From a virus (Duplodnaviria > Heunggongvirae > Uroviricota > Caudoviricetes): DNA of 64,000 bases. Shown here piece by piece: positions 3,484 through 51,200 of this stretch. Where the stretch lies: IMG/VR virus record IMGVR_UViG_3300045988_134250, one strand, 5' to 3'. Both the position numbers and the translations under genes were made by a program. Under the pieces are notes generated by a model that was not told the DNA's origin, did no database searches, and saw only the letters and a program-made list of their open reading frames with translations. Within the stretch, counting starts at the first letter, position 1. Each line of letters starts with the position of its first letter.

Positions 3484-4137
3484 CTATCCTTTCTTGAAAT
3501 CGAAGTTGCCAGCAGTGGCCTGAAAGGTTCCTCCTGCCTTGAAAGCTATGTCTCCGTTAGCGGTGACAGCAATATTTTCCCCTTTAACATTGATGTTGTT
3601 GGTTGATTTGACGTTAACACTCCCTCCTGCATTCACGATTACATCAGCCGGACCAATGATATATATCTGCCCGGACTCATTCATGCCAATCCTTGAGCCT
3701 GCTGCCGTATTGGCAATTTCATAGCCGCCACCAGCAGTTCGTACTTCAAGAATATTGTTGCGGTGAATAACGAAGTCTTTCGTTGCTGAGATTTGGGGGC
3801 GGGGAGGTGCTCCATCTACTTCCGGCGGCGTCCAGCCGTTGCCTTTGCCAGATGCTTCTGGTGCAACGTTTGGAATTCCTCCCGGTGCATCCTGAGCGGC
3901 ACCAACTATCATTGGGCGTCTGGTGTCTATTCGACCGTTAACATCTAAATAAGGAAACTCTACCCAGACCAGGTCACCTTTGACTGTGGGTACAAAAGCG
4001 TTTCCGATGGGTAACAGGTATTCCGCCCAGGGTAGATCGTCATCAGGAACGCCATTCCAGTCAGGTAAAACACGGACTTGAGCACGCATAAGCCCTGCCG
4101 GGTGCACAGTTCCAACAATTTGCGCTCTACGCTTCAT
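3484..4137 (-). CDS. Hypothetical protein with Gly-rich beta-strand repeats (function unknown)
   Basis: 217-aa ORF, 4-nt overlap with upstream ORF (coupling), same operon as rdgC-like/dmt. Confidence 0.5.
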   Translation of the reverse strand: MKRRAQIVGTVHPAGLMRAQVRVLPDWNGVPDDDLPWAEYLLPIGNAFVPTVKGDLVWVEFPYLDVNGRIDTRRPMIVGAAQDAPGGIPNVAPEASGKGNGWTPPEVDGAPPRPQISATKDFVIHRNNILEVRTAGGGYEIANTAAGSRIGMNESGQIYIIGPADVIVNAGGSVNVKSTNNINVKGENIAVTANGDIAFKAGGTFQATAGNFDFKKG

Positions 4138-10357: not shown

Positions 10358-10550
10358 AACAAAGCCTCTCAGTCATAACCTGGGGGAAACTGTATGCAGG
10401 GTGTGAAATGTGAGAAACAGACAGGCCACCAGTTCAGGGGGATGTGGTTCATAAATCCCCTCACTGGTGACAAGTGACTTTCATTAATCTTTGTGCGGGG
10501 GCCAGCTTCATTTGCTGGCATTAGATTAAAAATTAAACGGAGTGAATGAC

Positions 10551-24000: not shown

Positions 24001-25521
24001 ATGACCACTATTACCAAAGAACGTATTGAATTGTTCATTAAAAATCCGCTTGAAAACGGGCTTACCCGTGGTGAACAAATGGAACTGGCACGGATTGCGC
24101 TGGCATCGCTGGAAGCAGATCCAGTTAAACGAGTTAACTCAGATCAGATGCGCCGAGTCTGCTTAGAAGCTAATCGCCATTTAGATAAATATGACGCGAT
24201 GGCGAAAGAGGTAAATAAGTTGCTTGGACGCATCGCCCCGCCAGCGCCGGTAGTGCCGGAAGAAGCAACTCCGGAAAACGTAGAAATGCTCTCTGGCTAT
24301 GTTTCCACGTACAAATTAACCGATAGCGAGCGCGATATTGCTGCCGAAATATGGAACGCCTGCCGCACCGCCATGCTTCAGTCCGGAAACTTTCGGGAAA
24401 GCAAGAATTCGTCAACCAATAATTTTCGGGAAATCGCGGAAACGTCAACCAACTATCCGGTAATTCCTAGTGAGGTGTTGTCAGCAATCCTGAAGTTTGC
24501 CAGAGTTCGTGCCGATTTCGATGATTTTGACGGTGACAGGCGAGGTATCGGTGATTGTCTGGATGAGGCCGAGCAAGAGCTTATCGTTACCATTAACAAA
24601 TATGCCAGTCAGTTGGCAGCAGAACCGATAGCGACTAATGACGTTCGAGAGCAAACAGCCGTTCCGCCAATACAGGCTGATGTCGCGCAAGCAATTGAAA
24701 ATCTCAAGCAGAAGTTAGTGGAATGCAATCGCTATAACTACTGCGCAGATGCAGTTAAAGGCGTAGAGGATGCCAGCCGCGTCTTGGCACTCCAAAATCA
24801 AAATATGTCAGCACCGGTAACGCCGGAGGCCATTGAAAACGCAATTGAATATATCCGCAGTATCGCTTTTCACATCGATGAAGACGATTACCACGGCAAG
24901 CATATTGCGTATTTCATGCGACAAGCATTGGCCTGGCTGGAAGGGCATTCATGCAGCGACGACAGGCTGGGTAAGGCCGACAATCAACCCGCATCTGGTA
25001 ACCAGTCTGCCGAATCCAATCGCGGTAATGAGTGGACCGGCAATCCTGATATTGATAACGCCATCATCATGCTCGACCGCATAGATACGGCGGAAAGTTG
25101 CGATGATGACCGTATTGAGGCCGTTAAGGCTGTGTTGCGTAGACTGGCAGGCAACTATCCGGATATTCCGGATAGTTCGGTGCCAGCGCCAGGAAAGGGC
25201 GTCACCGGTGAACGTATCCGCATTAAGCCGCATGTTTATCGCGAACTGGTTAACCGTCTCCACGATACAGCGATCAAGTGTGCTGGCACCCAGCAATTAC
25301 GAGAAAGAATTAGCCGTGTTTTGGGCGACGTTATTACACCAGATCATCATAAACAAGCCGAGAAAAGTGGCCTGGAAAGGTGTCGCCTTGAGGCGGCATT
25401 AAACATTAAGCCGGGGCATACGCTTGGCATTATTGATGCACTATTGGTTCATAAGATGGCCAGGGCTTTATTGCCGCTGGTGGCTGAAAAGCATGAGGTG
25501 GACCATGCCAACGAAAGCTGA
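24001..25521 (+). CDS. Hypothetical protein (506 aa), N-terminal paralog of 23315 gene
   Basis: MTTITKERIELFIKNPLENGLTRGEQMELARIALASLEA; also shares PAPVVP and WNACR.AML segments. Confidence 0.5.
   Translation: MTTITKERIELFIKNPLENGLTRGEQMELARIALASLEADPVKRVNSDQMRRVCLEANRHLDKYDAMAKEVNKLLGRIAPPAPVVPEEATPENVEMLSGYVSTYKLTDSERDIAAEIWNACRTAMLQSGNFRESKNSSTNNFREIAETSTNYPVIPSEVLSAILKFARVRADFDDFDGDRRGIGDCLDEAEQELIVTINKYASQLAAEPIATNDVREQTAVPPIQADVAQAIENLKQKLVECNRYNYCADAVKGVEDASRVLALQNQNMSAPVTPEAIENAIEYIRSIAFHIDEDDYHGKHIAYFMRQALAWLEGHSCSDDRLGKADNQPASGNQSAESNRGNEWTGNPDIDNAIIMLDRIDTAESCDDDRIEAVKAVLRRLAGNYPDIPDSSVPAPGKGVTGERIRIKPHVYRELVNRLHDTAIKCAGTQQLRERISRVLGDVITPDHHKQAEKSGLERCRLEAALNIKPGHTLGIIDALLVHKMARALLPLVAEKHEVDHANES
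24013..24119 (+). repeat. ~105-bp direct repeat, copy B
   Basis: Near-identical to 23327-23433. Confidence 0.7.
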
Positions 25522-25789
25522 ATTACAGGTGCGCGTAGATGAGCTTGAAAAAGAGAACGCGAGCCTCAAAAAAATGCTGTCGCGGGCGGAAAGGGAATTA
25601 TCAGGCAAATTATTGCCAGAAGAACTGCCACCAGCAGATATACCTGATCGAGTGTCCTGGTGGATGAAGTATTTCCGTGCACCGTGGGAGGCGTTTTGGT
25701 GCTACGACCATCGCAGATGGTGTGATGAGCTTGATAGCAGTTTCCCCTATTTTGCAGAAGGGAACTCTTGCCCTGAATGTAGGCGTTAA
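25505..25789 (+). CDS. Small Cys-rich protein, paralog of next gene
   Basis: ATG 25505 (track 25424); WEAFWCYDHRRWCDELDSSFPYFAEGNSCPECRR. Confidence 0.45.
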   Translation: MPTKAELQVRVDELEKENASLKKMLSRAERELSGKLLPEELPPADIPDRVSWWMKYFRAPWEAFWCYDHRRWCDELDSSFPYFAEGNSCPECRR

Positions 25790-26094
25790 TGATGACCGGC
25801 GAGCTTTATTTTAAAATGGCACGGGAGCGGCGTGTGCATCTGGATCGGATATTTCATCTCCAGAAGAGAGTAGAAGAACTGGAACGTCGTCTGAACTGTT
25901 ATCCTGTTGATATGGTGTCTGCAATACCGCCGATTCCAATAGAAATGCAGATCCGCCTATGGATGGAAGAATATGGAATGCCGTGGGAGATATTTTTCTG
26001 CTTCGACCATAAACAGTGGGTAGATGAGCTGGATAATAGTTTCCCATATTTCACAGAGAACACATGCCCAGTATGCAGGAAGAACGGAATATGA
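25789..26094 (+). CDS. Small Cys-rich protein, paralog of previous gene
   Basis: 101 aa; WEIFFCFDHKQWVDELDNSFPYFTENTCPVCRK; TAATG start overlap. Confidence 0.45.
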   Translation: MMTGELYFKMARERRVHLDRIFHLQKRVEELERRLNCYPVDMVSAIPPIPIEMQIRLWMEEYGMPWEIFFCFDHKQWVDELDNSFPYFTENTCPVCRKNGI

Positions 26095-27809: not shown

Positions 27810-27917
27810 TCCCAGCAATTGCAAGACTGCATCTCGAGGATTTAAGGCACCAAGAAGTGGTATTCAGCATCATTAAAACCTATAATTGCGTACACATAAC
27901 GAGCACACGAGGTGTTT

Positions 27918-28139
27918 ATGCAATCCATTAACTTCCGTACCGCGCGCGGCAACCTTTCTGAAGTGCTCAACAATGTTGAAGCCGGGGAAGAGGTTGAAAT
28001 CACCCGCAGAGGCCGTGAGCCAGCAGTAATTGTCAGCAAGGCTACTTTTGAAGCCTACAAAAAAGCGGCGCTGGATGCCGAATTTGCATCCCTGTTTGAC
28101 ACCCTGGACTCCACCAACAAGGAACTGGTTAACCGATAA
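27918..28139 (+). CDS. phd: Phd antitoxin
   Basis: [73 protein letters not shown] matches P1 Phd as recalled; ATG 27918 (track GTG 27912). Confidence 0.85.
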
Positions 28140-28519
28140 TGAGGCATATATCACCGGAAGAACTTATTGCGCTTCATGATGCGAATATAAGCCGCTACGG
28201 CGGCCTGCCGGGAATGTCAGATCCGGGTAGGGCAGAGGCCATTATCGGGAGAGTTCAGGCCAGAGTTGCCTACGAAGAGATCACCGACCTTTTCGAAGTC
28301 TCCGCCACCTACCTGGTGGCTACGGCGAGAGGGCATATATTCAATGATGCCAATAAGCGTACCGCGCTAAACAGTGCGCTGCTATTTCTACGCCGTAACG
28401 GTATACAGGTATATGATGATCCCGTGCTGGTGGAGCTTGCAGTGGGGGCTGCAACTGGTGAAATCCCCGTATCTTCAGTAGCGAAAAAACTACGTGAACT
28501 ATATGGTTCCAATATTTGA
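28139..28519 (+). CDS. doc: Doc toxin (Fic-fold kinase)
   Basis: 126 aa, [25 protein letters not shown]...[11 protein letters not shown]; TAATG overlap with phd. Confidence 0.85.
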
Positions 28520-28520
28520 A

Positions 28521-28552
28521 AAGAAGCCCGCTCAACCAGGCGGGCTTCTTAC
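28521..28552. terminator. Bidirectional hairpin terminator between doc and convergent terminase paralog
   Basis: gaagcccgc-tcaaccag-gcgggcttc stem-loop (28523-28548). Confidence 0.5.
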
Positions 28553-28554
28553 TA

Positions 28555-29649
28555 TCACTCAATGATTTTTTCTGCTGTCAGCCAGCTAATTTCTTGCCTG
28601 TCTTTCGGCGGTTTTAGCATGTGGGCGTATTCAGCGACATTCTCCCACGGAATTGTTTTTGCCCACTCAACGATAGCATTGTGATCTGCAGTGAAGAGTG
28701 GAATGGTGTGCGATTTCAACCATTCTAATGTCGTGACGCCATGTTTTTTGGCGTGGTGCTGCGCATGATGCCGGGCTATCACTCGTAATGGTATTGTCCA
28801 TTCACTACCATCAGGCATCGAAAAGCGCATTGTCTTCGGCATATCTGATTCAAGAACAGCCTCCCTAATACCAGGGAACTCACCAAGAATCATACGACGA
28901 TAGTCATCACTATTTCGCCCGCCATACCTTTCGGCAAAATGATCAAGATATTCTTGGGTAATAAATGGTGAATCCTCCGCACTCAGCTTAATGGCTTTAT
29001 ATACACCACTCGGATTATCTTCAGCTAAAGCACGTCCATGATGTGAATCATAAAAAAAGCCTATTTCCTCTGGTGACGGAATTGAAGTGAGCAATATGCG
29101 TGAATCACCACTAGTCATGCTTGCCCACACAATGCTGTATGCCCGATCGCTGATATGTGCGGAATCCACAATAATGAATAAAAGATGGTCGGCGTAGTGA
29201 CCTGCAATGCTATCTTCATAGTTAAGGCGGAAGTTACAAAAGCACATTCCCCAAAATTCATTGAACATCAGACCGCTATCACCGACCTTAAAATACTCAA
29301 TGATAAAAGGTTGTTTTTTCAGCAATGCCTCCCAACATTGCCACACATATGCAACAATTCCTCTTTTGCAAACATTTGATTTTGGATAAACAATTACTGT
29401 CCGGGAATCAGGATACATAATCGTATAAAGGGTACTAATAACAGCAAGCACTTGCGGTCGTCCGATCCCATACGGAGTGGTGACAGTAGCTTTTGCATTA
29501 TTGGGCTGTATAGCTTCAACAATTTGTTGTTGCTGGTGGCTTAAATCAATATCAAACAATTCTTTTGCTGCCAGTACCCAATTGTCTTTATATTTCTCCA
29601 CCAGCGACAGCCAGCGCGGATCTTTATAAATATTGCTCTTAGTCGCCAT
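28555..29649 (-). CDS. Terminase large-subunit paralog: ATPase-like domain with degenerate Walker A/B, lacking the C-terminal nuclease domain
   Basis: Track ORF 28555..29940 overlaps upstream gene; ATG 29649 gives ~364 aa (MATKSNIYKDPRWLS...). Aligns by eye to PacB-like 34738..36246 over ~330 aa (DPRW, HQQQQI, FFYDSHH, DNP.G, YGGR, LG.FP) but Walker A is TTPYGIGRPQ and Walker B is IIVDSAH. Confidence 0.6.
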   Translation of the reverse strand: MATKSNIYKDPRWLSLVEKYKDNWVLAAKELFDIDLSHQQQQIVEAIQPNNAKATVTTPYGIGRPQVLAVISTLYTIMYPDSRTVIVYPKSNVCKRGIVAYVWQCWEALLKKQPFIIEYFKVGDSGLMFNEFWGMCFCNFRLNYEDSIAGHYADHLLFIIVDSAHISDRAYSIVWASMTSGDSRILLTSIPSPEEIGFFYDSHHGRALAEDNPSGVYKAIKLSAEDSPFITQEYLDHFAERYGGRNSDDYRRMILGEFPGIREAVLESDMPKTMRFSMPDGSEWTIPLRVIARHHAQHHAKKHGVTTLEWLKSHTIPLFTADHNAIVEWAKTIPWENVAEYAHMLKPPKDRQEISWLTAEKIIE

Positions 29650-30406
29650 CTGCCACTTCCTTAACTTCTTCTTTGGCCTGTTCTGCAATCGCCGCACGGC
29701 ATTTCGCCCTGGCTGTAGCGATTGCTTCAGCTCGCACATCGTCTGGAATCGTTGACGTGATATACATATCCAGTTCTTCGGCACGGAATACTGTTTGGTC
29801 CAGATATTCGCGTAGCATCCAGGTAAATTCGAAATCACACGCGATAATCTCTGCGCTACCTTCTGCACCATTTGGGAAATGAATAAATGCCTGTTTAGCC
29901 AAACCGATAACACGACATGCGGTTGCCAAAACAGCGACAACTAGGTTTACATTTTCACACGCTACGGGCTGGTTAACGCCGGAGATTACTCCATTTAACT
30001 GTCGGTTATATGGAAGGTAGTTTGAGATGCGTTCTACGCGCCATGTGCCAGTCAGGCTGCCATTTTTAAATATAATTGGTGTAACGGATAGCCCAAGCTC
30101 GCGTATAAGTCGTTGCGCTATAGCAGGATCATTAAACAGGTCTAATGCTACACATTCGAAAGACTGCGCAAGGGCAAACAGTTCTTCCAGAGAGTAGTCT
30201 TTGCCCCTGGCGGTGATGTAACGACGAACGCCGCTGTCTGCATCACTCCATATAGCTACGCCATGCTCTTCATTCAGCTCTTCATTAAAGCCGAGATACG
30301 TCATGATAGTGCGTTCAATCGTGTCAAACGGCAGTGACATGTCGGCGTTAACAGCCACCAGCAGGCCATTACGCAAGCGGTATTGAATTGTTTTAGTGCT
30401 TTCCAT
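29639..30406 (-). CDS. Hypothetical protein
   Basis: 255-aa ORF immediately upstream of and overlapping the terminase paralog start. Confidence 0.5.
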   Translation of the reverse strand: MESTKTIQYRLRNGLLVAVNADMSLPFDTIERTIMTYLGFNEELNEEHGVAIWSDADSGVRRYITARGKDYSLEELFALAQSFECVALDLFNDPAIAQRLIRELGLSVTPIIFKNGSLTGTWRVERISNYLPYNRQLNGVISGVNQPVACENVNLVVAVLATACRVIGLAKQAFIHFPNGAEGSAEIIACDFEFTWMLREYLDQTVFRAEELDMYITSTIPDDVRAEAIATARAKCRAAIAEQAKEEVKEVADGD

Positions 30407-30412
30407 GTCAAA

Positions 30413-30853
30413 TCACTCCACAACAAACCAGTCACAGGCCAGCAGGTCGCCAACTGAAGGCACCCACGGAACAACTACACCTTGTGCATTTTTTAAGGCG
30501 AAATAAGCACCATACGGAACGAGGTCGCCGGGGAAATATCCCTTAATGGCTTCCATTCGTGCCGGGTACTGTCCTTCAGGAACCAGCCAGCAGAATTGGT
30601 TTTCGCCGTTCCACCCGCGTCGAGCAACTTTCTTGCCTTCCTTCAGCCACATCAGCGCGTCTGAAAAGTCGGCTGCTTCAAGGTCGATTTCTTCTTGCTG
30701 GGTGGTGATGCCACCAGCAGAAATAGTTACGCTCCCGGTAAGATTAATCATCACGCCGTTGTCATCCGTAATGATGACCGTGGTTCCATTTTTTTTGTGA
30801 GCTTTGTATTTGGGACGGAACTTAAAAAGCTCTTTCGTTGCCATGTTATTCAT
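30413..30853 (-). CDS. DUF2829-like domain protein (Tad2-like fold candidate)
   Basis: 146 aa; C-terminal FSDALMWLKEGKKVARRGWNG...VPWVPSVGDLLACDWFVVE resembles the DUF2829 signature as recalled. Confidence 0.45.
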   Translation of the reverse strand: MNNMATKELFKFRPKYKAHKKNGTTVIITDDNGVMINLTGSVTISAGGITTQQEEIDLEAADFSDALMWLKEGKKVARRGWNGENQFCWLVPEGQYPARMEAIKGYFPGDLVPYGAYFALKNAQGVVVPWVPSVGDLLACDWFVVE

Positions 30854-30867
30854 AGTCTTTTCTCTGC

Positions 30868-31362
30868 TTATAACTTTTCGTACTGAAGCGGTGAACGCTT
30901 AATTTCAAAGTGGCCTTCCGATGTGCTACCAAAGCCACCAGCACCACGCTCCGTTTCGTTGAGTTCCTCAACCTCGACTAGTGAGACTTGTTCAACACGC
31001 TCAAAAATTCCTTGCATGACAGCCATTCCAGGCTTGAGACAAACGCCTTCCCCGCCGGGATCAGTAATCAGTTTTGCCATGATTTCGCCGCGATAATCGG
31101 AGTCGATAATTCCTACGCAGTTAGCCAGGCGAGTATGTTTTTTGCAGCCCAATCCTGATCGCGGATAGAGTTTCAGACACCAGCCGGGCGGGATCTCCAT
31201 AGCCAGTCCGGTATACACCCACCAGCTTGAGGAAATTGCACCATTGCTATCGACGCATGGTTTTATTTCAACAGCCTCAAAATCCATCGCCGCCGATCCG
31301 GAGGTGGCATAAGCTGGAAGTTTTGCTGCCGGATGTAGGCGTTTCACTTTTACGTAAATCAT
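30868..31362 (-). CDS. dut: dUTPase-like protein
   Basis: 164 aa; LPAYATSGSAAMDF, GIIDSDYRGEI, RGAGGFGSTS motifs. Confidence 0.6.
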   Translation of the reverse strand: MIYVKVKRLHPAAKLPAYATSGSAAMDFEAVEIKPCVDSNGAISSSWWVYTGLAMEIPPGWCLKLYPRSGLGCKKHTRLANCVGIIDSDYRGEIMAKLITDPGGEGVCLKPGMAVMQGIFERVEQVSLVEVEELNETERGAGGFGSTSEGHFEIKRSPLQYEKL

Positions 31363-31841
31363 TGTTTTTTAGCTCTCTGCGTGAAGGTGTAAACCCGACG
31401 TTTGATATGTGGAACGGTAGGAACAGGAAGACAGGAACTTTCAATAACTCCTTGCTCATCCAGCGATCGCACCGCCCGCAAGAACTGCGACGTGTCGCCG
31501 CCAAACTGGCGGGCATAGGTGCTGCCGTTATGAAGTATTTGAGCTATTACCCGAGTTTTTGTCTGGCTGTCACGATATGCGAATAGCCGCACGGCCTCTT
31601 CTGGCGCAATCGCTAACTGATAGCCTTTCCCGGCACGGTGTCGAATGAATCCATGCGCCAGTAGGTTTTTGAGTTCGTTACGAGTGCGAACAGATCCGTA
31701 ACCCAGGAAGTGTGGATTGATAACGACTGGCTTAAACCATTCCGTAGGTGCTTTAGCTAATAGAGCTAACAGCTTCCCGGATAATTCTGGATAGGAAGAC
31801 GGGTAACAATTCAGAGATGGGTAATAAGTTTTCACCGACAC
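31359..31841 (-). CDS. Hypothetical protein
   Basis: 160-aa ORF, 4-nt overlap with dut-like gene. Confidence 0.45.
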   Translation of the reverse strand: MSVKTYYPSLNCYPSSYPELSGKLLALLAKAPTEWFKPVVINPHFLGYGSVRTRNELKNLLAHGFIRHRAGKGYQLAIAPEEAVRLFAYRDSQTKTRVIAQILHNGSTYARQFGGDTSQFLRAVRSLDEQGVIESSCLPVPTVPHIKRRVYTFTQRAKKQ

Positions 31842-32176
31842 CCCCTTGCAGGATATCGACCGGCATTAGTATCCGGTGCAATAAAGCCGGTAGTGGGGCG
31901 AGTGAAAGCGAGATTAATCTTCTCGACCATAGTGCGATAATTTTCCTGATAGTGGGCCAGGAGTTTTTCGGCGGCAATGATGGTTACTTTCCGGACGTAG
32001 CTTTCTGCTTCCTCCAGATTTCGCCAGTTTTTTTCGAGGGTAAACACAGGGACGGCCTCAAGCCCGGTCATGATGCCGAACACAACGACAGCATGACTGT
32101 TCTTAACACCAGCGGCGAAGGTTACGGTGTAACCATCCACCTTGAAGCGTCTTGATTCCGTGATTTGACTCTGCAA
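31832..32176 (-). CDS. Hypothetical protein
   Basis: 114 aa, TTG start with RBS aggagg; first gene after dre. Confidence 0.4.
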   Translation of the reverse strand: MQSQITESRRFKVDGYTVTFAAGVKNSHAVVVFGIMTGLEAVPVFTLEKNWRNLEEAESYVRKVTIIAAEKLLAHYQENYRTMVEKINLAFTRPTTGFIAPDTNAGRYPARGCR

Positions 32177-32234
32177 AGCACCCTCCTAAATAGGCGAGGG
32201 TACTTTACAGCAAAGGCGTTAATCTAAAAAGATG

Positions 32235-32244
32235 TGTTAGAAAT
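32235..32244 (-). promoter_or_regulatory. TTTTCTAACA motif copy
   Basis: plus gatgtgttagaaattt, between dre stop and next gene start. Confidence 0.45.
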
Positions 32245-32249
32245 TTAAT

Positions 32250-33278
32250 TTACGAATCCATCAGGCGGCTATTAGCCCCCACAGACACGCCGCCACGGCG
32301 AAGATACCGCATAAGTGTTTCCGGTTTCTTCCAGGTTCCTTCCTGCATGATCTCCACCATAGACACCTGCTTTTCAGCCATATCAATAGCGGCCCCGACG
32401 CGTGCACTATGCCCGGTCCACGTCCGGTATCTTCCTTTGTTTGGCGTAGCATCTCTTTTATTCAGCAACACCCAGGCGTCGCTGAATATTTTCTCCATTG
32501 CAGGTGCAGTAAGGGGCGTTGTCGTGATCCTGGCCTTATTGCTACGGTGTATCGGCGGGAACAGCACTGCGTCAGGATGTTCGCGAAGCCCGGAAACATC
32601 CAGCCAGTCATTCAGCACAGCGGTAGTGCGACGGGAAAGCACCTTATCAAGCCCGGCGGCGGTCGTTATTGTCTTCGTGTGTGAAATATGTAGCGTGACA
32701 GTGTCACCTGTTTGATCCAGATCTCCTACACGAATACGCGAGATTTCCGACATACGCATCAGCGTATTGTATGCAACAAAGAGAAAAGCCCGGTTGCGCA
32801 GGTCCACCAGCCGTTCTGACCTGGACAACAGGACGTCGAGCAGTTTCAGATCGTCCCACCGAAGCGGTATAGCCTGGCCTGTTCGTTCGCCTTTTTCAGT
32901 TGCCGCTTCGCGCCGGATGCGCCGCATAGCCAGAGAAACACTTTTATCATCCGAAAGTGGCGGAAGGCCACAATGCGAAAGCAGCATATTCAGCATGGCG
33001 TAGTGCTTATCAATGGTGGTCGAAGCCAGATCGGCATCATGCAGCTGAAGAAAATACTCGCGGGCCATTTCTGGTGAGATCGGAAACCAGGCAAGCTGGC
33101 GAGCGTGACACCAGCGCGCCCATGAATGAAACACCAACCGGAGGTCGCGCAGAGTATTCGGCGCATAAGCCCCCTGGTCATTCATGAACCGCATAAAGTT
33201 TTCTGCGGCCTCCTGGTACTCTTTGCCAATGTTGCGCAGAAAACCACCGGAGCTGCCAGAGATAATTAATTCACTCAT
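32250..33278 (-). CDS. dre: Cre-family tyrosine recombinase (Dre)
   Basis: 342 aa; Cre-like segments WFPISPE, LNMLLSHCGLPPLSDDKSVSLAMRRIRRE, IRVGDLD, WTGHSARVGAAIDMA, EIMQEGTWK; sequence as recalled matches D6 Dre; rox site 150 bp upstream. Confidence 0.85.
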   Translation of the reverse strand: MSELIISGSSGGFLRNIGKEYQEAAENFMRFMNDQGAYAPNTLRDLRLVFHSWARWCHARQLAWFPISPEMAREYFLQLHDADLASTTIDKHYAMLNMLLSHCGLPPLSDDKSVSLAMRRIRREAATEKGERTGQAIPLRWDDLKLLDVLLSRSERLVDLRNRAFLFVAYNTLMRMSEISRIRVGDLDQTGDTVTLHISHTKTITTAAGLDKVLSRRTTAVLNDWLDVSGLREHPDAVLFPPIHRSNKARITTTPLTAPAMEKIFSDAWVLLNKRDATPNKGRYRTWTGHSARVGAAIDMAEKQVSMVEIMQEGTWKKPETLMRYLRRGGVSVGANSRLMDS

Positions 33279-34737: not shown

Positions 34738-36246
34738 TTATATATCCAGATCCGGCATTTCGATATCCGCCAGAACCTGATCTCGGAAAGTTGCCATTTC
34801 GGCACCAATATCTTCATTAGCAGGCACATAGTCCACCAGCATAGTGAAGCAGTAGGTATCCCATCGGTCAGGCGATTTGATGTTTAGCTTTTGCCGCATG
34901 TGCTCTTTGCGCATCATCGCCATTTTCCCTTCTTCATTCAGTAAAAAGGGGATTTTTGACGCTTGCTCTGCCGTTTTAGGGTCACTGTCTATCCGCATAC
35001 GCCCTGACTTTATGGCATCTCGCGCCATAATATTTGCGTAGGCACGCTGATTAACAAATCGCTCCCTGTCTTTGTTCGCAAACATGGGTTTTCCCCACCG
35101 AATACGTACCGGGTTCGCACCACGACGCACCAACTGCGCACACGTATCAGAACCAAAACCATCAGCATCAACCGCGATTGTTATATTCGGGTATTTTTCC
35201 GGCGTACATTCGTTATATATGAAGTCAGCAAAGGCCAATGGGTCCATAGTGCCAGGCATCTCCATTACCTTAAAGTTAACAACGCGCCGCTTATCCCTGT
35301 GACCTGATACCTTGCAGATGTTGAGGACCGACTTATCTCGCCCATTACCAACGTCAGCCGTTGCCACCCATCCCCAGTTTTTCTCCAACAACACCTTGCG
35401 GCGAGCAGAGCGATCGCATTCATCACGACCAAGCAAATAGCCGTTAATTTCTCGTGGGAACTGACCAAGCACCTTGACCATGTACTCAATAGAATCGCGC
35501 CCACCATATTCCAGAAGCTTCTCCTTGATGAATTGTGGTGTGACGAACGGTGATTCTTCCGAGTTAAGAACAATTGCTGTCCAGATCCCTTTCGGGTTGT
35601 CTGGGGTTTTTGCTCGAGAATGGTGCGAATCGTAGAAATAACCACTTGGCCTTGTTGGCTGGGATAGCATCAACATCCGGTTATCTTCTTCAGTAAGAGC
35701 ACCGGTCATTACGCCGATCGCCTTATCAGATATACCAGATGCTTCATCCAGAATTAGAAGCAAATGTGCCGCGTGTTCCCCCGCCAGCGCTTCTTCGTTG
35801 CCGAGTCGATAACCTTTGCAGAGAACTTCCCAAATCCCCTTACGGGAGCGCTCATAAAACATGGTGTCAGAGAGGACAAAATAGGTCTGCAACCACCCAT
35901 GACGCTTAACTGCATTCGCCCAATACTGTTTAACGTATTTGAATACGCCTGTTTTTACCTGGCCTATCTTGTTAGCAACAATGATGACACGGGCATCGGG
36001 GAACAGGATCATAAAAATCAACAGCAACATCGCGGTAAGGGACGACTTCCCCGTTCCGTGTCCGGACGTGACGGTCGTCCTACTCCCCGTTTCCTGCACT
36101 GACTGAATGATCTGCTGCTGCTGGTGGGAGGGGAACATCCCAAAAATATCGACTACAGCCTGGGTAAAGTTGTAGCGGTATTTGATTACCATATCGCGCC
36201 AGCGTGGATCGCTGGTGACGCATTTAATCTTGCGCCCGCCAGCCAT
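34738..36246 (-). CDS. pacB: Terminase large subunit (PacB-like)
   Basis: 502 aa; Walker A TSGHGTGKSS, Walker B LLLILDEAS; start overlaps pacA stop. Confidence 0.8.
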   Translation of the reverse strand: MAGGRKIKCVTSDPRWRDMVIKYRYNFTQAVVDIFGMFPSHQQQQIIQSVQETGSRTTVTSGHGTGKSSLTAMLLLIFMILFPDARVIIVANKIGQVKTGVFKYVKQYWANAVKRHGWLQTYFVLSDTMFYERSRKGIWEVLCKGYRLGNEEALAGEHAAHLLLILDEASGISDKAIGVMTGALTEEDNRMLMLSQPTRPSGYFYDSHHSRAKTPDNPKGIWTAIVLNSEESPFVTPQFIKEKLLEYGGRDSIEYMVKVLGQFPREINGYLLGRDECDRSARRKVLLEKNWGWVATADVGNGRDKSVLNICKVSGHRDKRRVVNFKVMEMPGTMDPLAFADFIYNECTPEKYPNITIAVDADGFGSDTCAQLVRRGANPVRIRWGKPMFANKDRERFVNQRAYANIMARDAIKSGRMRIDSDPKTAEQASKIPFLLNEEGKMAMMRKEHMRQKLNIKSPDRWDTYCFTMLVDYVPANEDIGAEMATFRDQVLADIEMPDLDI

Positions 36247-37610
36247 TAATCATCCTCCGGCGGTTCTATCGCGATATCATCATCTCCGGCGTCATACCCT
36301 GCATCAGATGCATCATAATCACCGTAAATTTCAGCCGTTGCCGAAGGGTCAATATCCAGCTCTTCGTCGTTGGCCTCGAATTCTCCAGCTTTACGCTCGC
36401 CATTGCGGTCGTAATCTCCGCACCCCAATTCTTCAACAATGGTTGCCACATCCGCCCGGCGCTCTGCCAGCCATTGCGGATGGTTAGCCTGAAGCGTTGC
36501 AAACTCCCTTGCCTCTTTGTCCAGCTGTTCATCATCAACATCATTGACGTCAGAAACAGGTGGTTCGAGAAGAGTGATAGCTTTCGCCGCGCGCGCCGCG
36601 AGGATAGCCGGGACGCTGACACCCTGGCGCTCGATGTATTCAGCAACACCGATATCATCCAGTTCCTCGCGCTCACGCATACGTATAGCGGCGGCGATAA
36701 CTCTGGCTGCGCGTGCGTCAGCGCCAATGCGATATTCAATCTCTTTGCCACGCTGTTCGGCCTGTAGGCGTGCTAATTCGAGTTTTTCTCTGGCCTCAGC
36801 CTCTTTGAATGCTTGCTGGCGAGCGCTCTGACGAAGCTTTTCATCCCCCTGTCGCAGCTTTTGTTCGGACTGATATATAGCTGCCAACCTACTGATAAAA
36901 TCATTCATGTAGTAGGCCGCGTCACTGATTAGACCGAGAAGGCGCTGCCCAGGGTGCATTCCTTCTGGCTCTTTATCGCCCAAGGCGTCTATTTCCGCCT
37001 GTAGACGTTCGGCCTCCTGATCAACAATGCTTTGATACTGAAGTGCGCGCTCTTGCGCCATTTGAATTGCTAACCGCAGGTGTTCTTCTGCGCCGTTCTT
37101 CATCATATCGCGAGCCACATTCGTAGTTGGCAATGTGGCACGCTGCACAGCACCGTCAGGGATCATTGCAGAAGATCCCTCAATTTTTGGGGCGTTTTTA
37201 TCTTCTTCGGGGATCATTTTCGCCATTTTTTCGCGCAATGATCTCCTGACAGATTCTTTTATCTCATTGTTATTATTTGAATTATTTTCATGATCCGAAG
37301 TTTTCTTTCTCGGCATACTTCGGAAAGAACCTGCGCCCTGCGAATTGTCAATTTCTGTAAATTTTGTTTTTTCTGCACCCTCTTCCAGCTTTTTTGTTGC
37401 TCTTCCCGCCCGTTTTTTTTCAGGTGATTTGGTGCTTTTTTTTGTTGTCTTTACCTGCGACCGCACCTCATTTTTTTTCATATTGAGATGCTTTCTGGCT
37501 GTATTGAAGCTAAGGCCATGCTCCTCACAGTATTCCTTTACAGTGATCCCTTTTTCTTCACGCAACGCTATAAAGCGGGCGCGGTGCTCCTCCCAATTAA
37601 CCAGACTCAT
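36246..37610 (-). CDS. pacA: Terminase small/pac-recognition subunit (PacA-like)
   Basis: 454 aa; N-terminal HTH ITVKEYCEEHGLSFNTARKHL, central coiled coil, acidic C-terminus; coupled to pacB; GATC cluster inside 5' third. Confidence 0.65.
   Translation of the reverse strand: MSLVNWEEHRARFIALREEKGITVKEYCEEHGLSFNTARKHLNMKKNEVRSQVKTTKKSTKSPEKKRAGRATKKLEEGAEKTKFTEIDNSQGAGSFRSMPRKKTSDHENNSNNNNEIKESVRRSLREKMAKMIPEEDKNAPKIEGSSAMIPDGAVQRATLPTTNVARDMMKNGAEEHLRLAIQMAQERALQYQSIVDQEAERLQAEIDALGDKEPEGMHPGQRLLGLISDAAYYMNDFISRLAAIYQSEQKLRQGDEKLRQSARQQAFKEAEAREKLELARLQAEQRGKEIEYRIGADARAARVIAAAIRMREREELDDIGVAEYIERQGVSVPAILAARAAKAITLLEPPVSDVNDVDDEQLDKEAREFATLQANHPQWLAERRADVATIVEELGCGDYDRNGERKAGEFEANDEELDIDPSATAEIYGDYDASDAGYDAGDDDIAIEPPEDD
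37155..37300. other. Candidate pac site (cluster of Dam GATC hexamers inside pacA)
   Basis: Five GATC in ~135 bp (37161, 37174, 37212, 37240, 37292), four within TGATC; P1 pac lies within pacA and consists of clustered TGATCA/G elements. Confidence 0.45.
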
Positions 37611-37999
37611 AAAGCAACACCACGCTTTTTAACGGCGGCATTCCACAGCTTATTCGCCATGTCCACCAGCTCTCGTTGCTCTTTTCGCGCCTGTTCGACT
37701 GATTTCCTGCTACAGTTTTTAACCAGTAAACTGCCATATTCAGGGGTTCGCCCACGCACCTTGAACTGATATCCGTTCAGGCCATGCAACCAGTATTTTC
37801 GTGGGTAAACACGATCATCAAGCTCACAGATTGCCCTGCTTGAACGAACAAAATGACGAATGATGTTAGTTACACTTACTCGTGAAACATGGAGATGAGG
37901 GTATTTTTCTTTGGCGAGAGTGGTAATTTCAGTGACTGTCAGATAGCAGTCAGCCCTGATCATGATATCCGCAATTTCTGCGCTGCTGATTTGTTCCAT
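37607..37999 (-). CDS. Candidate late-promoter activator (Lpa-like; positional)
   Basis: 130-aa ORF directly upstream of and coupled to pacA; operator-like motif 80 bp upstream. Confidence 0.35.
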   Translation of the reverse strand: MEQISSAEIADIMIRADCYLTVTEITTLAKEKYPHLHVSRVSVTNIIRHFVRSSRAICELDDRVYPRKYWLHGLNGYQFKVRGRTPEYGSLLVKNCSRKSVEQARKEQRELVDMANKLWNAAVKKRGVAL

Positions 38000-38107: not shown

Positions 38108-38500
38108 CTACCAGCGAGACAAACGAACAACATGTTTCACTTTTGCGATCCACTGTCCGCGATAACTATTGATTACGGCCTGTGCCAGCTTCAAATTGGC
38201 TTCAAAATCAGCCTTACTACCATCAGACTCCACCAGCATTCCTCCATCTATTTCTGGTAAACATAGATAATCCTGCTCAACCTGCAGCGGCATTGATGGC
38301 TCTCTGAATGGGGTTACTTGCTCTGCTTTCCAGCGAAATCTAACCCTTATCCCCCTGGTGGTCATTACTAGATAGCCTGTTATAGTGCTTTTATGGCCCA
38401 CATCAGTACGCGTGGCATTGCATGACTCGATCTTACAGTTAGCGATAGACCACTCCATATTGGTGGCCTGTTGAGTGCTTAATTTGGTAGTCCCGTACAT
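38108..38500 (-). CDS. Hypothetical protein
   Basis: 130-aa ORF coupled (1-nt overlap) to upstream gene. Confidence 0.45.
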   Translation of the reverse strand: MYGTTKLSTQQATNMEWSIANCKIESCNATRTDVGHKSTITGYLVMTTRGIRVRFRWKAEQVTPFREPSMPLQVEQDYLCLPEIDGGMLVESDGSKADFEANLKLAQAVINSYRGQWIAKVKHVVRLSRW

Positions 38501-39075
38501 CAGAAAGCCTCCCAGTCAGTCGCGATAATATCCACACCAGTTGCAAACCAGTCTGTCTGCGCCTGTAAATCCCCATTCATCATTACCAGGCGAGGCATCA
38601 CCATCACATCGCACCCTTCCACAATATCGAATGCCTCTTCCGGCAAGAATTCGAAGAGCTTTTCTTTGCTGCCAATACTGCCACGGAACATCGATATATA
38701 GCTCCCTTTGGGCCATGATGTCCGCCGGGCATCAAGCCCTTTCATCATCCAGTAAAAAGCCGAGGAAAAAGGGATATTCTTTTTGCCAATGATTACATTA
38801 TTCGCTTCTGTGTATTTCAGGAACTTAACTAACCTTACCATTGACTCGGATAACGCAACGTATGGCTCATGATTGATTGCTGACACGCTTACACCGTGCA
38901 ATCCAACGCTTACCACTGTCATATCGCCGCTCTGTGCGGTTTCGATATTGACGCCTTTGCGAACTAATGAGGCGTAAATTTCCTCTCGCTTTTGGGTCCA
39001 GCGTTCACGCTTCCCTATGAAGTCACTCAAAATGAGATCTTCTTCTGTATATGCGTTATCGTTCGCCATTAACAT
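38500..39075 (-). CDS. Hypothetical protein with C-terminal DUF2829-like segment
   Basis: 191 aa; FSSAFYWMMKGLDARRTSWPKGSYI...DIIATDWEAF. Confidence 0.4.
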   Translation of the reverse strand: MLMANDNAYTEEDLILSDFIGKRERWTQKREEIYASLVRKGVNIETAQSGDMTVVSVGLHGVSVSAINHEPYVALSESMVRLVKFLKYTEANNVIIGKKNIPFSSAFYWMMKGLDARRTSWPKGSYISMFRGSIGSKEKLFEFLPEEAFDIVEGCDVMVMPRLVMMNGDLQAQTDWFATGVDIIATDWEAF

Positions 39076-45253: not shown

Positions 45254-48200
45254 TTAGGCCGCATCGGCGATTATTTTACGCAGTTCATCTACCGAGTAAC
45301 GCGTAGATACCATCCATGCAGGACGGTCAAAGTTCACATCAGCAACCGGGTTTGCTTCAAAATTCCAGAAACGTCCGCCAATCTTCTTAATCGCGTCTTT
45401 GGCGTTCCGTATTGTCGAGGAACCTGGTTGGTCGGCAATGAGATAAACCGCGCCAACGTCCTCGCTGACGCTCCACCAGCGCCCGCGAACACGCGCCTTA
45501 GCGCGAATCGGCTTATCATTAACCACAATGATATAGTCATCATTCGCCGCTTCATCAGCTCTGGCTTCAGCCACTGCCGCCTGCTCTTCTCTTTTGCTTT
45601 CAGCCTGCTCAAGCCTTTCCGCGATCTCTGATTCAGTGGCCCCGCCGTTTTTCAGCGATACATAGTCCTGCCACGTTGCCGATTTGAGCGTATCCGGCAA
45701 CTCATTCACATAGTCGCCGTCTTTCAACTCACGGGCGCGGCGGGTAGCCATTTCTACCAGGCGATTAACAGAAACAGCATCAGCAAAATCGTCCTTACTA
45801 ATGTGTTTTTCATCAAATGCATTGATGACAGCCCCCACCTTAATCCACTGTGCTGCCGGTGATTCCAGGGGGTTATCAGCCTGAACAATGGCGAGTTTCG
45901 CTCCATCTACCCCATTATTCGCCAGCTGTTCCAATGCCGCCCATCCATCTGCATCACTGAGTGATTTATATTGCTCAAACAATGCATCGCGCCAGGCCAC
46001 CAGCGCAGAACGTGTTTTTTCGATCTTCGCCTTAATTTTCGCGATCTTGACCTGATTAAACATCCGTTCAATATCATCGATATTGCTAAAGGCTTTCATC
46101 CTGCCCTGGAATAAACGGTATGCCAGCACGGTCCTCCAGAATGATTCCAGACCTTCTCCGGACGGTTTGCGGAACAAGCTAAGAATATCTTCAGAAGTGA
46201 CTTTATTAAGCGAACGACCTGACAGACCACGCCCAGCCATCCAGTTTTCGAACTCATGGGCAACATCATCCATCGTTGCCTGTGCGCCCCATGCCTGCAT
46301 TCCCTGGGTGTAATCATACCCATACAATGCCTGGAGGAATCCCTCGCCGTCCACGATATTCAGCGGGTTATCACTGGCTTGTATTTTTGCCACTTCACGC
46401 TTCAGCGCCTCGTCGTTGCCATCAGGATATATCCATCGCTCAGGTGCTATATCCGATGCTCGCCCGATTTTTTGGCCTATCACGCCATCATAGGCCGATG
46501 ACAGCGCGATCTGACCATCATCTGTGCGATATGCCCAGTATTTAATAGCTGACCCACCGCCCCATGCATTACCAGGTTTACCAGCAATAACATTCATTAC
46601 CCCATTGCGAATAGCATCATAGAACTGATCGCGAGTAAGTATTGTTGATAGCTGGTGGCACTGAACACCACGCGCAGCCGTTGCGCGCGATTCAGCTACC
46701 CCCTCTTCAAAAGTTACCGCTTCAATCACAGAGTCAAACGGCAATGTAACGATTGACCCCGGTGCTCGAGCGTAACGACTTGCTCTATCCAGCCAGGCGA
46801 TACGGCAGAGGTATTGTGCTTTTTCACCGTCAATTTTTTCCACCCGGACAATCGCTGTTGTTTCGCGATCATCAATGACTGCACGGTAATAACTACCTTT
46901 ATGCAACAGGATATTCTTGTCAGTGCGCATATATTCCTGTGGGTTCTGAATAACATCGATACTGATATCCAGCACACCAGACTTAATAGCGCGCTCCACA
47001 TCACCACGAGAGCGTTTCATTATGGTATCCGCGTCTTTTGCCCTGGTGATCGCAAACCGCAGCACCCGCGCACGTTTTCTGTAGCTACTCAACTGCTCAA
47101 GCGCGTATTTTTGCCCATTCCTGTTCGTACCCGCTTTTATCAGGTCGTCAAGATTGCGCTGGTAATACTCTATCTGTTCCATCGCGCTTTTCAGTTCTGT
47201 CTCCATCATGCCGATATCTTTTCCGGCGGCGTTTGCCGCTTTCAGGTAGATATCGAGAGCATTGTTGGCCTCGCGCTGTGCTTTCAGTTTCAGACGTTCT
47301 TCACGCTCTTGCGCCTGGCGAGCCATGATTGCGCGGCGTTCTTCCGGGTTTGCCGCCAGCATAATGGCGCGTTCATCAGCATCATCCGCATCACCATTGG
47401 CGATCTCTGACATGTCGGATGTCATCACCATCTTGATCCAGTCTTTCTTACGTTTCAGCGTATCCAGACGGAAGTCGTCGAATGTGCCTTTGCCACAATA
47501 GTAGTGAACATTGACCTTTTCTTGCGGTGAACCTACGCGCGCACCGCGCCCATTTCGTTGGTCGATACTGGCTGGTGTCCAGGGTAGTGTCAGGTGGTGG
47601 ATATCGGTTGTCCCGATGTGCAGGTTAATACCTACTTCAGCCTTCTTGTTACAGATTATGATGCGCGTGCGACCTTCGTTATAGTCGGCGGCAATACCTT
47701 CCATGCCCTCAAGGCCAGCATCATTTTTAGCGGAGAGATAATCCTCATATTGGGCAAGTTTGCTGTAGTAGGTTTCCCATGCCCCTTCTTTGTATTCACC
47801 GTTTTTGTTTGGAGTAGGTTCGGTCGGCTTATTCACCTTCTTCAGCTTGATGCCACCAGCCTGGCTAACTGTCGTCGCATTGATAATGCCAATCTCCTGC
47901 TCCGGCATTTGCAGTGCACTGGCGATAATACGGCGCAGCTTCTGGTGCTGGGCTTTTTCATCAATAAAGACGATCTGCTTACCGTTCTTCAGACCTTCAC
48001 GAAGATTTTCGATCAGCGCGGCATACTTCGGCGGGATGGGGTGCGACACCTGCTGCATATCAATGCCGGCAGCCGCAATGGCCTTCAGTATTTCAGCTTC
48101 CAGTTCAATGCTGGCACGTATTTCAACATGCGTCGGATGTTCACTAAAAGCGGTCTTCACTACCTTGCTGGTACGCGTACTGACCAGCCCGCCAGCGCCG

Positions 48201-51200
48201 TCTTCCTCGGCCTCATCAACATCATCTGCCACTTTACCGCCAGCTACTTTTGGCAAGGCATCAGCAATAGCTTTTACCTGGTCTGCAAGCTCAACGGGGA
48301 ACTGGAATGTAATCGCACTGGCATACAGATCCGGGTCTATAGCAACCTTATCCATGTCACGGATGATGGAGAAGATGAAATCATCCGGTTTGTCGTTAGT
48401 GATATGCCCGTTTTCATCGACTGTCAGCTCATCATTGCGACTTAACTCCTGAGCACGCTTACGAAGCTCTTCATAAGCAGTCTCCTGCTCCCCTGTCATC
48501 GGGATCTGCAAGGTGTTCTCGATGATGTCGGGAATTTTAACCGTCGCTCCGACATCTGCAGCAGTCTTCAGAGTGGTCCAACGATGGAAAATACCACGCA
48601 GGCCGTCAAGGTTCTGGAAGCCCACCAGCCCCTGCTTCTCTTCCACTTCCCCGGAAATTTTCTGGACCTGAACTGTGGCTGTTTTGCCAAACACACGAAC
48701 GAAATCATCAGGCGTAATGATGCCCATACGCATCCACTCTTCCTGCGGAATGACAGTAGACAGCATGTTGAAGGCATCAATCGGACTGTTCACCAGCGGT
48801 GTTGCCGTCAGCATGACTACACCACGCCCGTTGTTGCGTTTCATCATGTACGCAGCTTTTACAGCCATGTCGCGGGCCATCTTGGATACTGCCGGGTTAG
48901 GCAAATATGCCAGTTGTCCCGCTTCACGCCCGGCATTAAAGGAGTTGCGGTAGTTATGCCCCTCGTCGGCAATCACGCTATCGAAGTTCATATCCTCAAA
49001 GTAAGGGATATTCTGCTTCTTCGTTGTACCGGTATTCGCGGCCTGATCCTTAATCTTGTTCTTCTTCTGCGCATCACGGTGTTTACCGGACGCCAGGTCA
49101 AGACGCCCCATTTCCACAGCATTAAAGACAGCTTGCTGTGAGTTCTCCTCGATGGTTTTTTCTCGTAGCGGGATAGACGCGAATTGTTCTTTTGTCATGA
49201 TGACCGTTCGCCAATTTGACGACGGGATCATGTTCATACGCTGAACGATAACGGCGCTGGAGGACTCTTTCACAACATTTCTGGTAAGAGGCTGCCCGTT
49301 ACTGTCGAGGCGTGGTTCGCCATTTTCATCAAGCACCGGCGCGGTCAGAATATTTCCGCTGTCATCACGAACTTCATCCAAACCGATAAACATCATATTG
49401 GCGAAGGCATCAGCACTGTAGAAACTCTGTGCCTCGTGATACCAGTTCTGATAAACCGCCTTCGGAACAACAATACACGTGCGTTTAGTGCGACCTGTTT
49501 CGAAGTTATACGCCTCAAGCGCAAGCGCGGTCGTGGTTTTACCCAGCCCGGTACCAAATCCCATGATGCCACGCCCATCTTCTGACAAGCGCCGAACTTC
49601 TTCATTCTGATAAGTCAGAGGAATGCGCTTTCCACTAATCCCTTCCAGGCCAAGCGGTGCGTCAGAATGTGTGAACGGAATGAAACCATTGAATGCGTCG
49701 TTATAGTCACGGGCTATCTGATCCGCCTGCGGGTGGGTGCGTAACCAGTCGTTAAAGCTAACTTCCAGTTGAGCAATTTTATCCAGGTACTCGTTAGCGT
49801 TCTGCCCACGCGGTTTAACACCGTTCAGGTAGTTTTCTAACTGGTTCAGGAAGCCGTCTTTATTGTTGGCCTTCTTGAACTCATTCCCGTTTTTGCCGTT
49901 TACGGTTCGTAGCTGATAGCCGGTAAATACCCCGTCCTTACCTTCGTAATCGTCCGGAGATACCAGAATGCCATCGACGACCTTCAGATCAGGTTCAGTG
50001 TACTTAAACTCGTCATAGCCCTGCTCTGCCAGGAACTCTTTTATCAAGCGGCGATCCAGCCAGCGGGCATTCAGATTAACGGTGACTTTATTTAGTGGCG
50101 TGAAAATGCGTTTCTCTTCGATTTTCGCCAACTGACGCTCAAAGTTCGCTTTCTGCTCACCTGTTGACGCATCACGCCAGCCCACCAGCAGTGCTGTTTT
50201 GGTTGCAACATCGCCGCTGGTGGCGCGGTCCATCGGCAGCAGACAGCCATACCCATCAATAGCGATATCATCAAATTTCGCCAGGTATTCAAGGACCGCG
50301 TCGTCGTCCTCTGGCAGTTCACCAGCAAACGCCTCACGAAAGTCGCCCAGCGTTATAGGATTAAGGGCTACATCACTAAAAAGATGTGCTATCACTTGTT
50401 CAGGACGCGTAAAGTCAATACCGGCAGCACCATCCGTTACATCAAGTCGCCCTGCCAGAAGGTCAGAAGTGGAACCATCCTGTTTCACATTGCCAGTGAA
50501 CGTCATCCAGTTTTTAGCGCCAGCTTCAGCAAGCCCATTCAGCTTAATCGCGTGCGGTGGTCCATACTTCGCAACTTCTGCTGCCGCCAAGCGGGATGCA
50601 TCTGCCAGTTTGTCATCAACGTTCACCCCCAGGTTACGCAAATCAAGTGCCTTGTTGATCAACTGACCTATCAGTGCACCGCGCATAACGCGCTCCCTGT
50701 CTTTTTCTCGCTGCTTGCCAGCAAAGCGAATCATTGCTGCCACTTCATCACTGACAACCGATGGATAGTCGGACGCGATCGCCGATATCTGGTCCCATGA
50801 CAAAGCCAGAATCCCGTTTGTTGACTGGAACGCGATCTGCAGATCGCCAAACGTCGAAACACCATATCGACTTACATCAAGCGCGGAGGATTTGGTTGTC
50901 GTGTCCTGAACCCATTTCAGACCATCAAACTCATGCCAGATACCGCCTACAAGGCGTTTATCGCCCACTTTCGCGCCCTGCCATGCCTGAGTAGTTACGC
51001 CGAGCAAATCCCAATTGATGCGACTATCAAAGCGACGAGATAGCGCGGTTTTCATCGACTCATTGGATACACGACCGTCTTTTTTCACCACTAGGGTATT
51101 GCGGAAGCTGGTACGTTCCATGTCGCCGTAAACAAATCGCTTCCCTTCGGTTGTAAACCATTTCCCTTTGAGGAAGGTAACCCAAAGGACGTTTGCCGAT

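Follow-up and report, generated by a model that had tools for sequence, protein, structure and literature searches.

A predicted terminase-derived pseudo-enzyme with a replaced C-terminal domain in P1- and D6-type phage-plasmids

A PacB ATPase-domain copy with a degenerate active site

We analyzed a 64,000-nucleotide stretch of viral DNA (IMG/VR record IMGVR_UViG_3300045988_134250; hereafter the window) that belongs to a D6-type relative of the phage-plasmid P1, and examined a minus-strand gene that encodes a 364-residue paralog of PacB, the large terminase (the PacB-N paralog; Table 1). The region is 97.5% identical to Escherichia phage D6, and the paralog is 100% identical to WP_000201932.1, a hypothetical protein of E. 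coli plasmid p702_18_3. Its reading frame opens with an ATG at 29649, with an AAGGA ribosome-binding site on the 5′ side, and closes with a stop codon at 28555-28557; a longer 461-residue open reading frame (ORF) and the 438-residue database entry P0002 are over-extensions of the gene. BLASTP aligns residues 7-259 of the protein with the intact PacB encoded elsewhere in the window (96/258 identities, 37%, E = 6e-57), a similarity far beyond chance, and identity to P1 PacB is about 33%. The initial annotation of this locus had already described a PacB-like ORF here, and the blocks it named as shared with PacB (DPRW, HQQQQI, FYDSHH, NPxG, YGGR and GxFP) all fall inside the alignment; it had placed the similarity over about 330 residues, and while the similarity itself holds, its extent is shorter, at about 260 residues.

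Catalytic positions were compared in an alignment of 53 PacB homologs and seven paralog alleles. The Walker A lysine is present in 53 of 53 PacB proteins and in none of the seven paralogs, where the position is R, H, E or Q, and the adjoining Ser/Thr is retained in 53/53 PacB proteins versus 1/7 paralogs. The Walker B aspartate occurs in 50 of 53 PacB proteins (the other three have Glu) versus 0/7 paralogs, the catalytic glutamate in 53/53 versus 2/7, and the Gln/Asn of the C-motif in 53/53 versus 0/7. Loss of the Walker A lysine and the Walker B glutamate from the window protein, as originally proposed, is borne out at both sites. Two additional copies described below have T (P0079) and C (Citrobacter) at the Walker A lysine position, and the variety of residues found there across alleles argues for relaxed constraint on catalysis. 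There is no different register that would restore the Walker motifs: alignments and the secondary structure of an AlphaFold2 (AF2) model put the remnants at their canonical positions. In the model a strand (residues 53-57) and a helix (64-78) flank the P-loop remnant, and the Walker B remnant closes a strand (155-161). While the catalytic residues drift, other PacB blocks are kept, including the N-terminal helices (DPRW..Y..W..AA) and the FYDSHH, NPxG, SP, GG and GxFP elements.

The AF2 model is confident over residues 1-260 (predicted local distance difference test score, pLDDT, mostly >85), and its best Protein Data Bank (PDB) matches in Foldseek are the large-terminase ATPase domains of P74-26, T4 gp17, Sf6 gp2, D6E and HK97, together with the PhiV-1 terminase in complex with Avs3 (top matches E = 9e-8 to 1e-5). 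Measured against a functional large terminase, the paralog has the ATPase fold and lacks Walker A, Walker B, the catalytic Glu, the C-motif, the nuclease domain and a place in a late operon next to PacA. By these sequence features it is a pseudo-enzyme, a copy of the PacB ATPase domain predicted to be unable to bind or hydrolyze ATP in the canonical manner. Public records call it a hypothetical protein or, wrongly, a terminase large subunit, and the phrog_5902 profile mixes enzyme and pseudo-enzyme, matching over the full length both the dead paralog and intact PacB (residues 6-364). The database entries P0002 and AXF39147.1 illustrate how transfer of annotation misleads here, and one record adds a false N-terminal extension of 74 residues to the paralog. 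In the searchable literature we found no description of this family of terminase-derived pseudo-enzymes with a replaced C-terminal domain.

That C-terminal domain, here domain X, occupies the position held in PacB by the nuclease domain, whose absence the initial annotation had correctly noted. The C-terminus was also considered as a remnant of the nuclease and this was excluded: hhalign gives a probability of 0.3% for its relationship with the PacB nuclease domain, the PacB alignment ends at residue 259, and profile matches in the PDB to the nuclease domains of Sf6 and other terminases sit in columns occupied by PacB only. Domain X is modeled as a beta-hairpin plus helices (AF2 pLDDT 91) and carries, over about 95 residues, the motif MPDGS.W.VP..IA..(R/H)A......DT.PLF......I.DWA...M.W.DV that also defines a widespread stand-alone phage protein of about 100 residues (229 representatives; phmmer, E <= 1e-3). 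It has no Pfam family, and sequence and fold searches of the PDB returned nothing significant, leaving a common phage domain of about 95 residues with neither a family entry nor a solved structure.

Residues 264-350 of the paralog match positions 399-486 of phrog_17928 (E = 2e-13), and the paralog shares domain X as a common C-terminal unit with phrog_17928/DUF1351-type proteins of Xanthomonas phages and with the stand-alone proteins. Unlike in the paralog, the N-terminal part of these proteins is a coiled coil, DUF1351-like or absent, and their genes lie in recombination and replication modules. In Cronobacter phage JK004, a stand-alone domain X is encoded two genes downstream of a Ban-like DnaB helicase, and in Xanthomonas phages domain X ends a DUF1351-like protein encoded directly 5′ of recombinase, exonuclease and SSB genes; DUF1351 genes hold the same position as Mu Gam homologs beside single-strand annealing proteins (PMC8093625). 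Metagenomic stand-alone copies are surrounded only by runs of small unannotated genes. Together, these neighborhoods suggest an early-region adaptor domain, without fixing its function. In one further metagenomic protein (P0129, 248 residues), domain X is joined to a C-terminal zinc ribbon with a weak match to the Lar restriction-alleviation family (E = 1e-5, below the Pfam cut-off), a possible anti-restriction link for the domain.

Two loci, many alleles and other architectures

In the window, the paralog gene starts within the end of an IsaA-like gene, with an 11-nt overlap between stop and start, and given this overlap the two genes are probably translationally coupled. Pfam and the PDB hold no relative of the IsaA-like protein, and searches of Pfam, NCBIfam and PADLOC with either protein gave no significant match (PADLOC: none at E <= 0.1). 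An origin of the pair as a duplicated terminase operon, with IsaA as a PacA paralog, was rejected, there being no similarity between the IsaA-like protein and PacA. The neighboring genes are those originally described, namely the 255-residue gene, a DUF2829/Tad2-like gene and a dUTPase gene. No gap exceeds about 75 nt among the same-strand genes upstream (30413..33278), and the sole sigma-70-like site on the strand of the paralog lies at 33449-33422, 5′ of the cre-like gene, making co-transcription with cre possible. Downstream, a hairpin that is probably a terminator occupies the 35-nt gap between the convergent doc and paralog genes. The late packaging operon Lpa-PacA-PacB (37999..34738) is encoded on the same strand, and the paralog lies outside it and is not adjacent to a PacA-like gene.

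Table 1. Features of the paralog locus and of the packaging operon in the window
Feature	Position	Strand	Basis or remark
PacB-N paralog gene (pseudo-terminase), 364 aa	28555..29649, stop codon included	-	ORF and translation; matches phrog_5902
Terminase-ATPase-fold domain with degenerate active site, residues 1-260	28870..29649	-	PacB match, AF2, Foldseek
Walker A remnant P59-Q66 (PYGIGRPQ)	29452..29475	-	GIGRPQ versus PacB GTGKSS; R64 for invariant Lys, P65 for Ser/Thr
Walker B remnant L156-A164 (LLFIIVDSA)	29158..29184	-	IIVDSA versus PacB ILDEAS; V161 for Asp, D162 for catalytic Glu
C-motif remnant S189-I190-P191	29077..29085	-	S-I-P versus PacB S-Q-P
Domain X, small alpha/beta domain, residues ~268-364	28558..28848	-	Position of PacB nuclease domain
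Allelic hypervariable cassette: end of IsaA-like gene and whole terminase-like domain	28866..29723	-	DNA identity versus pCUVET20-PYO4.3
IsaA-like gene, 255 aa	29639..30406	-	phrog_2326; 49% identical to P1 IsaA
Hairpin, 11-bp stem AAGAAGCCCGC/GCGGGCTTCTT and T-rich tail; probable terminator	28521..28550	-	Sequence reading and terminator scan
phd/doc	27912..28519	+	
Tad2-like/DUF2829 gene	30413..30853	-	
dUTPase	30868..31362	-	
orf114 and orf160, two small ORFs		-	Between cre-like gene and dUTPase
cre-like recombinase	32250..33278	-	
PacB, intact large terminase	34738..36246	-	Parent type of the paralog
PacA	36246..37610	-	Upstream of PacB
Lpa	37607..37999	-	Upstream of PacA

The paralog is absent from D6 and P1 themselves. 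In D6, a 313-bp segment holding pdcA stands in place of window positions 28477-29665, and in P1 isaA is followed by IS1 and isaB; the isaB locus was rejected as an ortholog, since IS1 and the unrelated isaB occupy the site used by the paralog in P1-type relatives. The initial annotation had pointed to the gene after doc in P1 as a place to look for an ortholog; pdcA and pdcB are not orthologs, and pacB alone matches in the P1 record. Many P1-type plasmids and two records labeled P1 carry the arrangement ssb-isaA-paralog between lyz and hxr, with a paralog 51% identical to the window protein. There the isaA/paralog pair lies between ssb and the hxr-ddrB-ddrA-darA block, which is annotated as antirestriction in P1 (PMC10695390), and the lyz-hxr interval is known to vary among P1-like elements (PMC6906374, PMC9603915). 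The paralog is coupled to an IsaA-like gene in both the D6-type and the P1-type locus. The ssb gene of P1-type elements, two genes upstream of the paralog, has a C1 operator with a single mismatch on its 5′ side, and no terminator-like site was seen on the plus strand from ssb to the paralog; the paralog is probably expressed early in these elements, from the C1-operated ssb promoter.

Full-length paralogs occur in 163 of the 790 PLSDB records that have a PacB-type match (34 at no less than 95% identity, 10 at 60-80% and the remainder at about 51%). At a coverage of at least 80%, 109 of 5426 complete E. coli genomes (about 2%) carry the gene, and 192 of the 194 matching places in complete E. 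coli genomes are on plasmids. D6-type elements of Enterobacter and Raoultella have cre operons that end in IsaA and lack the paralog; these operons hold a DNA methyltransferase or a dUTPase gene, and that of the Enterobacter element also a Tad2-like gene. The operon downstream of cre is itself a site of cargo exchange (window 30413..32176 and the Raoultella and Enterobacter elements), where a dUTPase or an N6/N4 DNA methyltransferase gene, with or without Tad2-like genes and an extra 169-residue ORF, precedes an IsaA-like gene that is usually last.

Comparison of the window with the D6-type plasmid pCUVET20-PYO4.3 delimits a hypervariable cassette within otherwise closely related DNA. Identity at the DNA level is 96-99% over most of the IsaA-like gene and throughout the kilobase that adjoins the cassette upstream, drops to 49-66% in the bulk of the terminase-like domain, and is back at 95-100% once domain X begins; the lid-like part of the domain (residues ~195-260, its last ~65 codons) is the least variable, at 73-75%. 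The corresponding protein identities are 96% for the IsaA-like part, 51% for the terminase-like domain and 98% for domain X, and synonymous divergence (dS) is 1.39 in the terminase-like domain versus 0.11 in the flanks. Between the same two elements PacA is identical at 450/454 residues and PacB at 499/502, so variation of the paralog does not track the terminase of its own element. At the sequence level, the terminase-like part is exchanged between near-identical elements as a highly divergent allelic cassette, a property that the initial annotation missed along with domain X, the coupling to IsaA and the second, P1-type locus. D6-type elements hold at least four allele groups, with intact ORFs in each, and the ratio of nonsynonymous to synonymous substitution (dN/dS) between clades is 0.17-0.30 for the terminase-like domain and 0.07-0.08 for domain X (the two computable pairs), which argues that these are working genes under purifying selection. 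One D6-type allele, P0007 (266 residues, 75% identical to the window protein), ends just past GEFP and has no domain X, and may be a pseudogene created by a frameshift or else a short form comparable to the Citrobacter copy.

The seven alleles form one group in 200/200 neighbor-joining bootstraps, on a long stem beside enterobacterial PacB, and when the Citrobacter copy and P0079 are added support is 100/100 and 96/100. All alleles are 33-41% identical to the PacB lineages, with none notably closer to any one of them. By sequence-based criteria, the paralogs are a single-origin, fast-evolving accessory family of P1/D6-type phage-plasmids. The two added copies differ in architecture. In P0079, from a contig of GCA_024867085.4 (8001-8741 of its extracted locus), the order is permuted, with domain X preceding a dead PacB-N domain whose Walker A site reads GSGTGTTT; the gene is cut off by insertion of a Tn3-family transposase, and AbiH and Ref-like nuclease genes lie nearby. 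The P1-type plasmid NZ_CP114569.1 of Citrobacter freundii encodes a 263-residue dead PacB-N protein that lacks domain X (locus 3974-4765; Walker A GIGCKH, Walker B ICPNAN), between ref and mat, with its start overlapping the stop of the gene for the Ref-family recombination-enhancement nuclease. That domain X and a dead terminase domain recur together in either order argues for a functional fusion.

Candidate roles of the paralog

The paralog resembles PacB in the homologous region (residues ~7-259), the ATPase fold and the family-specific non-catalytic motifs, and differs from it in having no Walker A Lys, Walker B acidic pair, C-motif Gln or nuclease domain, in lying apart from any PacA-like gene and from the late operon, and in being dispensable and highly variable. 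It most likely works by binding rather than as a second packaging enzyme, and the binding role is probably one in virus-host conflict. We favor conflict because the protein varies independently of the terminase of its element, because its neighbors include accessory and anti-defense genes (Tad2-like and methyltransferase genes in D6-type elements, the dar antirestriction block in P1-type elements), because its expression in P1-type elements is probably early, and because Avs2 reads the terminase ATPase domain, including bound ATP, and phage T4 carries vs.8, a stand-alone terminase-ATPase-like protein whose role is unknown (PMC13601566). Like the paralog, T4 vs.8 is an extra phage copy of the terminase ATPase domain with no nuclease domain; unlike the paralog, which carries domain X, it keeps Walker A and Walker B and activates EcAvs2 (PMC13601566). 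The case of vs.8 shows that phages do encode such copies of the terminase ATPase domain and that a terminase sensor can recognize them. In a tblastn search with the paralog (E <= 1e-5, 57 records), no T4-type phage appeared among the matches listed, which covered 40 of these records, and vs.8 is compared here from its published description.

From its anatomy and context, the paralog may be a non-catalytic terminase mimic that binds factors targeting terminase, a proposal we hold tentatively. An accessory or early operon would produce such a protein ahead of, or separately from, the late PacA/PacB operon. By structurally imitating the terminase ATPase domain, the protein would bind terminase-targeting factors and so occupy or divert them. 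The most plausible targets would be immune sensors of the host that recognize the terminase ATPase domain (of the Avs1-3 or Upx type) or inhibitors made by parasitic elements, and domain X and the coupled IsaA-like protein could give a second contact or block productive assembly of the bound partner. A narrower version, in which ATP-blind, nuclease-less terminase mimics with an allele-swapped sensor-facing core are decoys or inhibitors of Avs1-3/Upx and would represent a first phage counter-measure against terminase sensing, is rather unlikely.

Several observations weigh against a terminase mimic in conflict. T4 vs.8 is an activator of EcAvs2 rather than a blocker (PMC13601566), and by analogy the binding of a mimic should trigger the sensor unless oligomerization were prevented. 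No phage-encoded terminase decoy or dead terminase paralog is described in the literature searched, and the PADLOC searches matched neither the paralog nor IsaA. The usual surroundings of domain X are replication and recombination genes, and the dead PacB-N domain also occurs beside ref. The pattern of the P1-type C1 operator has no match anywhere in the window, and that of the P1 late promoter has none near the cassette, its single match in the window, at 10472, being at chance level. Finally, neighbor-joining is a simple distance method, and monophyly of the paralogs could be inflated by long-branch attraction.

The explanation that ranks second, close behind the terminase mimic, and that we consider doubtful, is a packaging modulator or poison subunit, in which the dead domain would keep the contacts of PacB with PacA, with neighboring PacB subunits or with pac DNA, either tuning pac cleavage and packaging of its own element or sabotaging the terminase of a related P1-type phage or satellite, whether co-resident or superinfecting. 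It is common for dead paralogs of ring ATPases to join or block the active assembly, and the PacB ancestry of the paralog, the retention of non-catalytic PacB-specific blocks while catalytic residues drift, and the comparatively low variation of the lid-like segment all fit such contacts; allelic diversity would also fit target specificity against different competitors. As an analogy, the satellite packaging-interference proteins Ppi of Staphylococcus aureus pathogenicity islands (SaPIs) and Rpp of phage-inducible chromosomal islands (PICIs) are non-catalytic and bind a terminase subunit, although they are not terminase homologs and are encoded by the satellites. Against this role, two plasmids with paralog alleles that differ by 49% have essentially the same PacA and PacB, and no allele stands out as closer to a particular PacB lineage. 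The C1 operator before ssb would keep the paralog of P1-type elements switched off in a lysogen, just where exclusion of an incoming phage would be called for. A part in regulating the packaging of its own element, which the initial annotation had offered as one function, is further weakened and fits poorly, because D6 and P1 do without the gene, because PacA and PacB stay near-identical across such divergent alleles, and because the P1-type paralog lies behind the C1-operated ssb rather than in the late Lpa-PacA-PacB operon.

Third, and improbable in our estimation, the dead domain could be a DNA-binding or scaffold module in DNA metabolism, with domain X coupling it to the phage proteins of replication and recombination; one task might be to handle or shield DNA ends or recombination intermediates, either once the DNA has been injected or while it is being replicated. 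The helicase-associated domain X of phage JK004, the DUF1351-like fusions of Xanthomonas phages and the Gam-like position of DUF1351 genes (PMC8093625) point this way, as do the location of the paralog behind ssb (P1-type elements) or downstream of cre (D6-type elements), the overlap of the Citrobacter copy with ref, and the Ref-like gene near the copy in which domain X comes first. Such neighborhoods could, however, simply reflect early or accessory gene regions, and a housekeeping role leaves unexplained both the patchy presence of the paralog and an allele identity of 51% within near-identical backbones. A decaying duplicate with no function, as the lost catalytic residues, the variability, the absence from many relatives and the truncation of allele P0007 before domain X might suggest, is essentially excluded by full-length intact ORFs in several deeply diverged alleles at two loci, low dN/dS in both domains, conservation of the ribosome-binding site and IsaA coupling, and recurrence of the domain fusion in permuted order.

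The large terminase is now recognized as a main target of bacterial pattern-recognition immunity. The paralog family, natural, conserved and catalytically dead, with allelic variants, a defined partner gene and a modular extra domain, provides a testable handle on whether such proteins blunt or trigger Avs/Upx or interfere with the packaging of related elements.

Other genes of interest in the window

The window holds a second Tad2-like (Thoeris anti-defense 2, DUF2829) gene at 38500..39075, and in pCUVET20-PYO4.3 the first gene has a replaced or divergent N-terminal part (about 30724-30901), between flanks that are 91-99% identical. Two adjacent small genes (25424..25789 and 25789..26094) encode paralogous proteins with the common C-terminal motif PWE.F.C.DH..W.DELD.SFPYF.E..CP.CR; neither protein has a Pfam match, and a gene in the corresponding region of a related plasmid is annotated as DUF551. 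A 2278-residue ORF at 45254..52090 combines N6 DNA methylase and SNF2/helicase domains and resembles the DarB-type antirestriction protein of P1.

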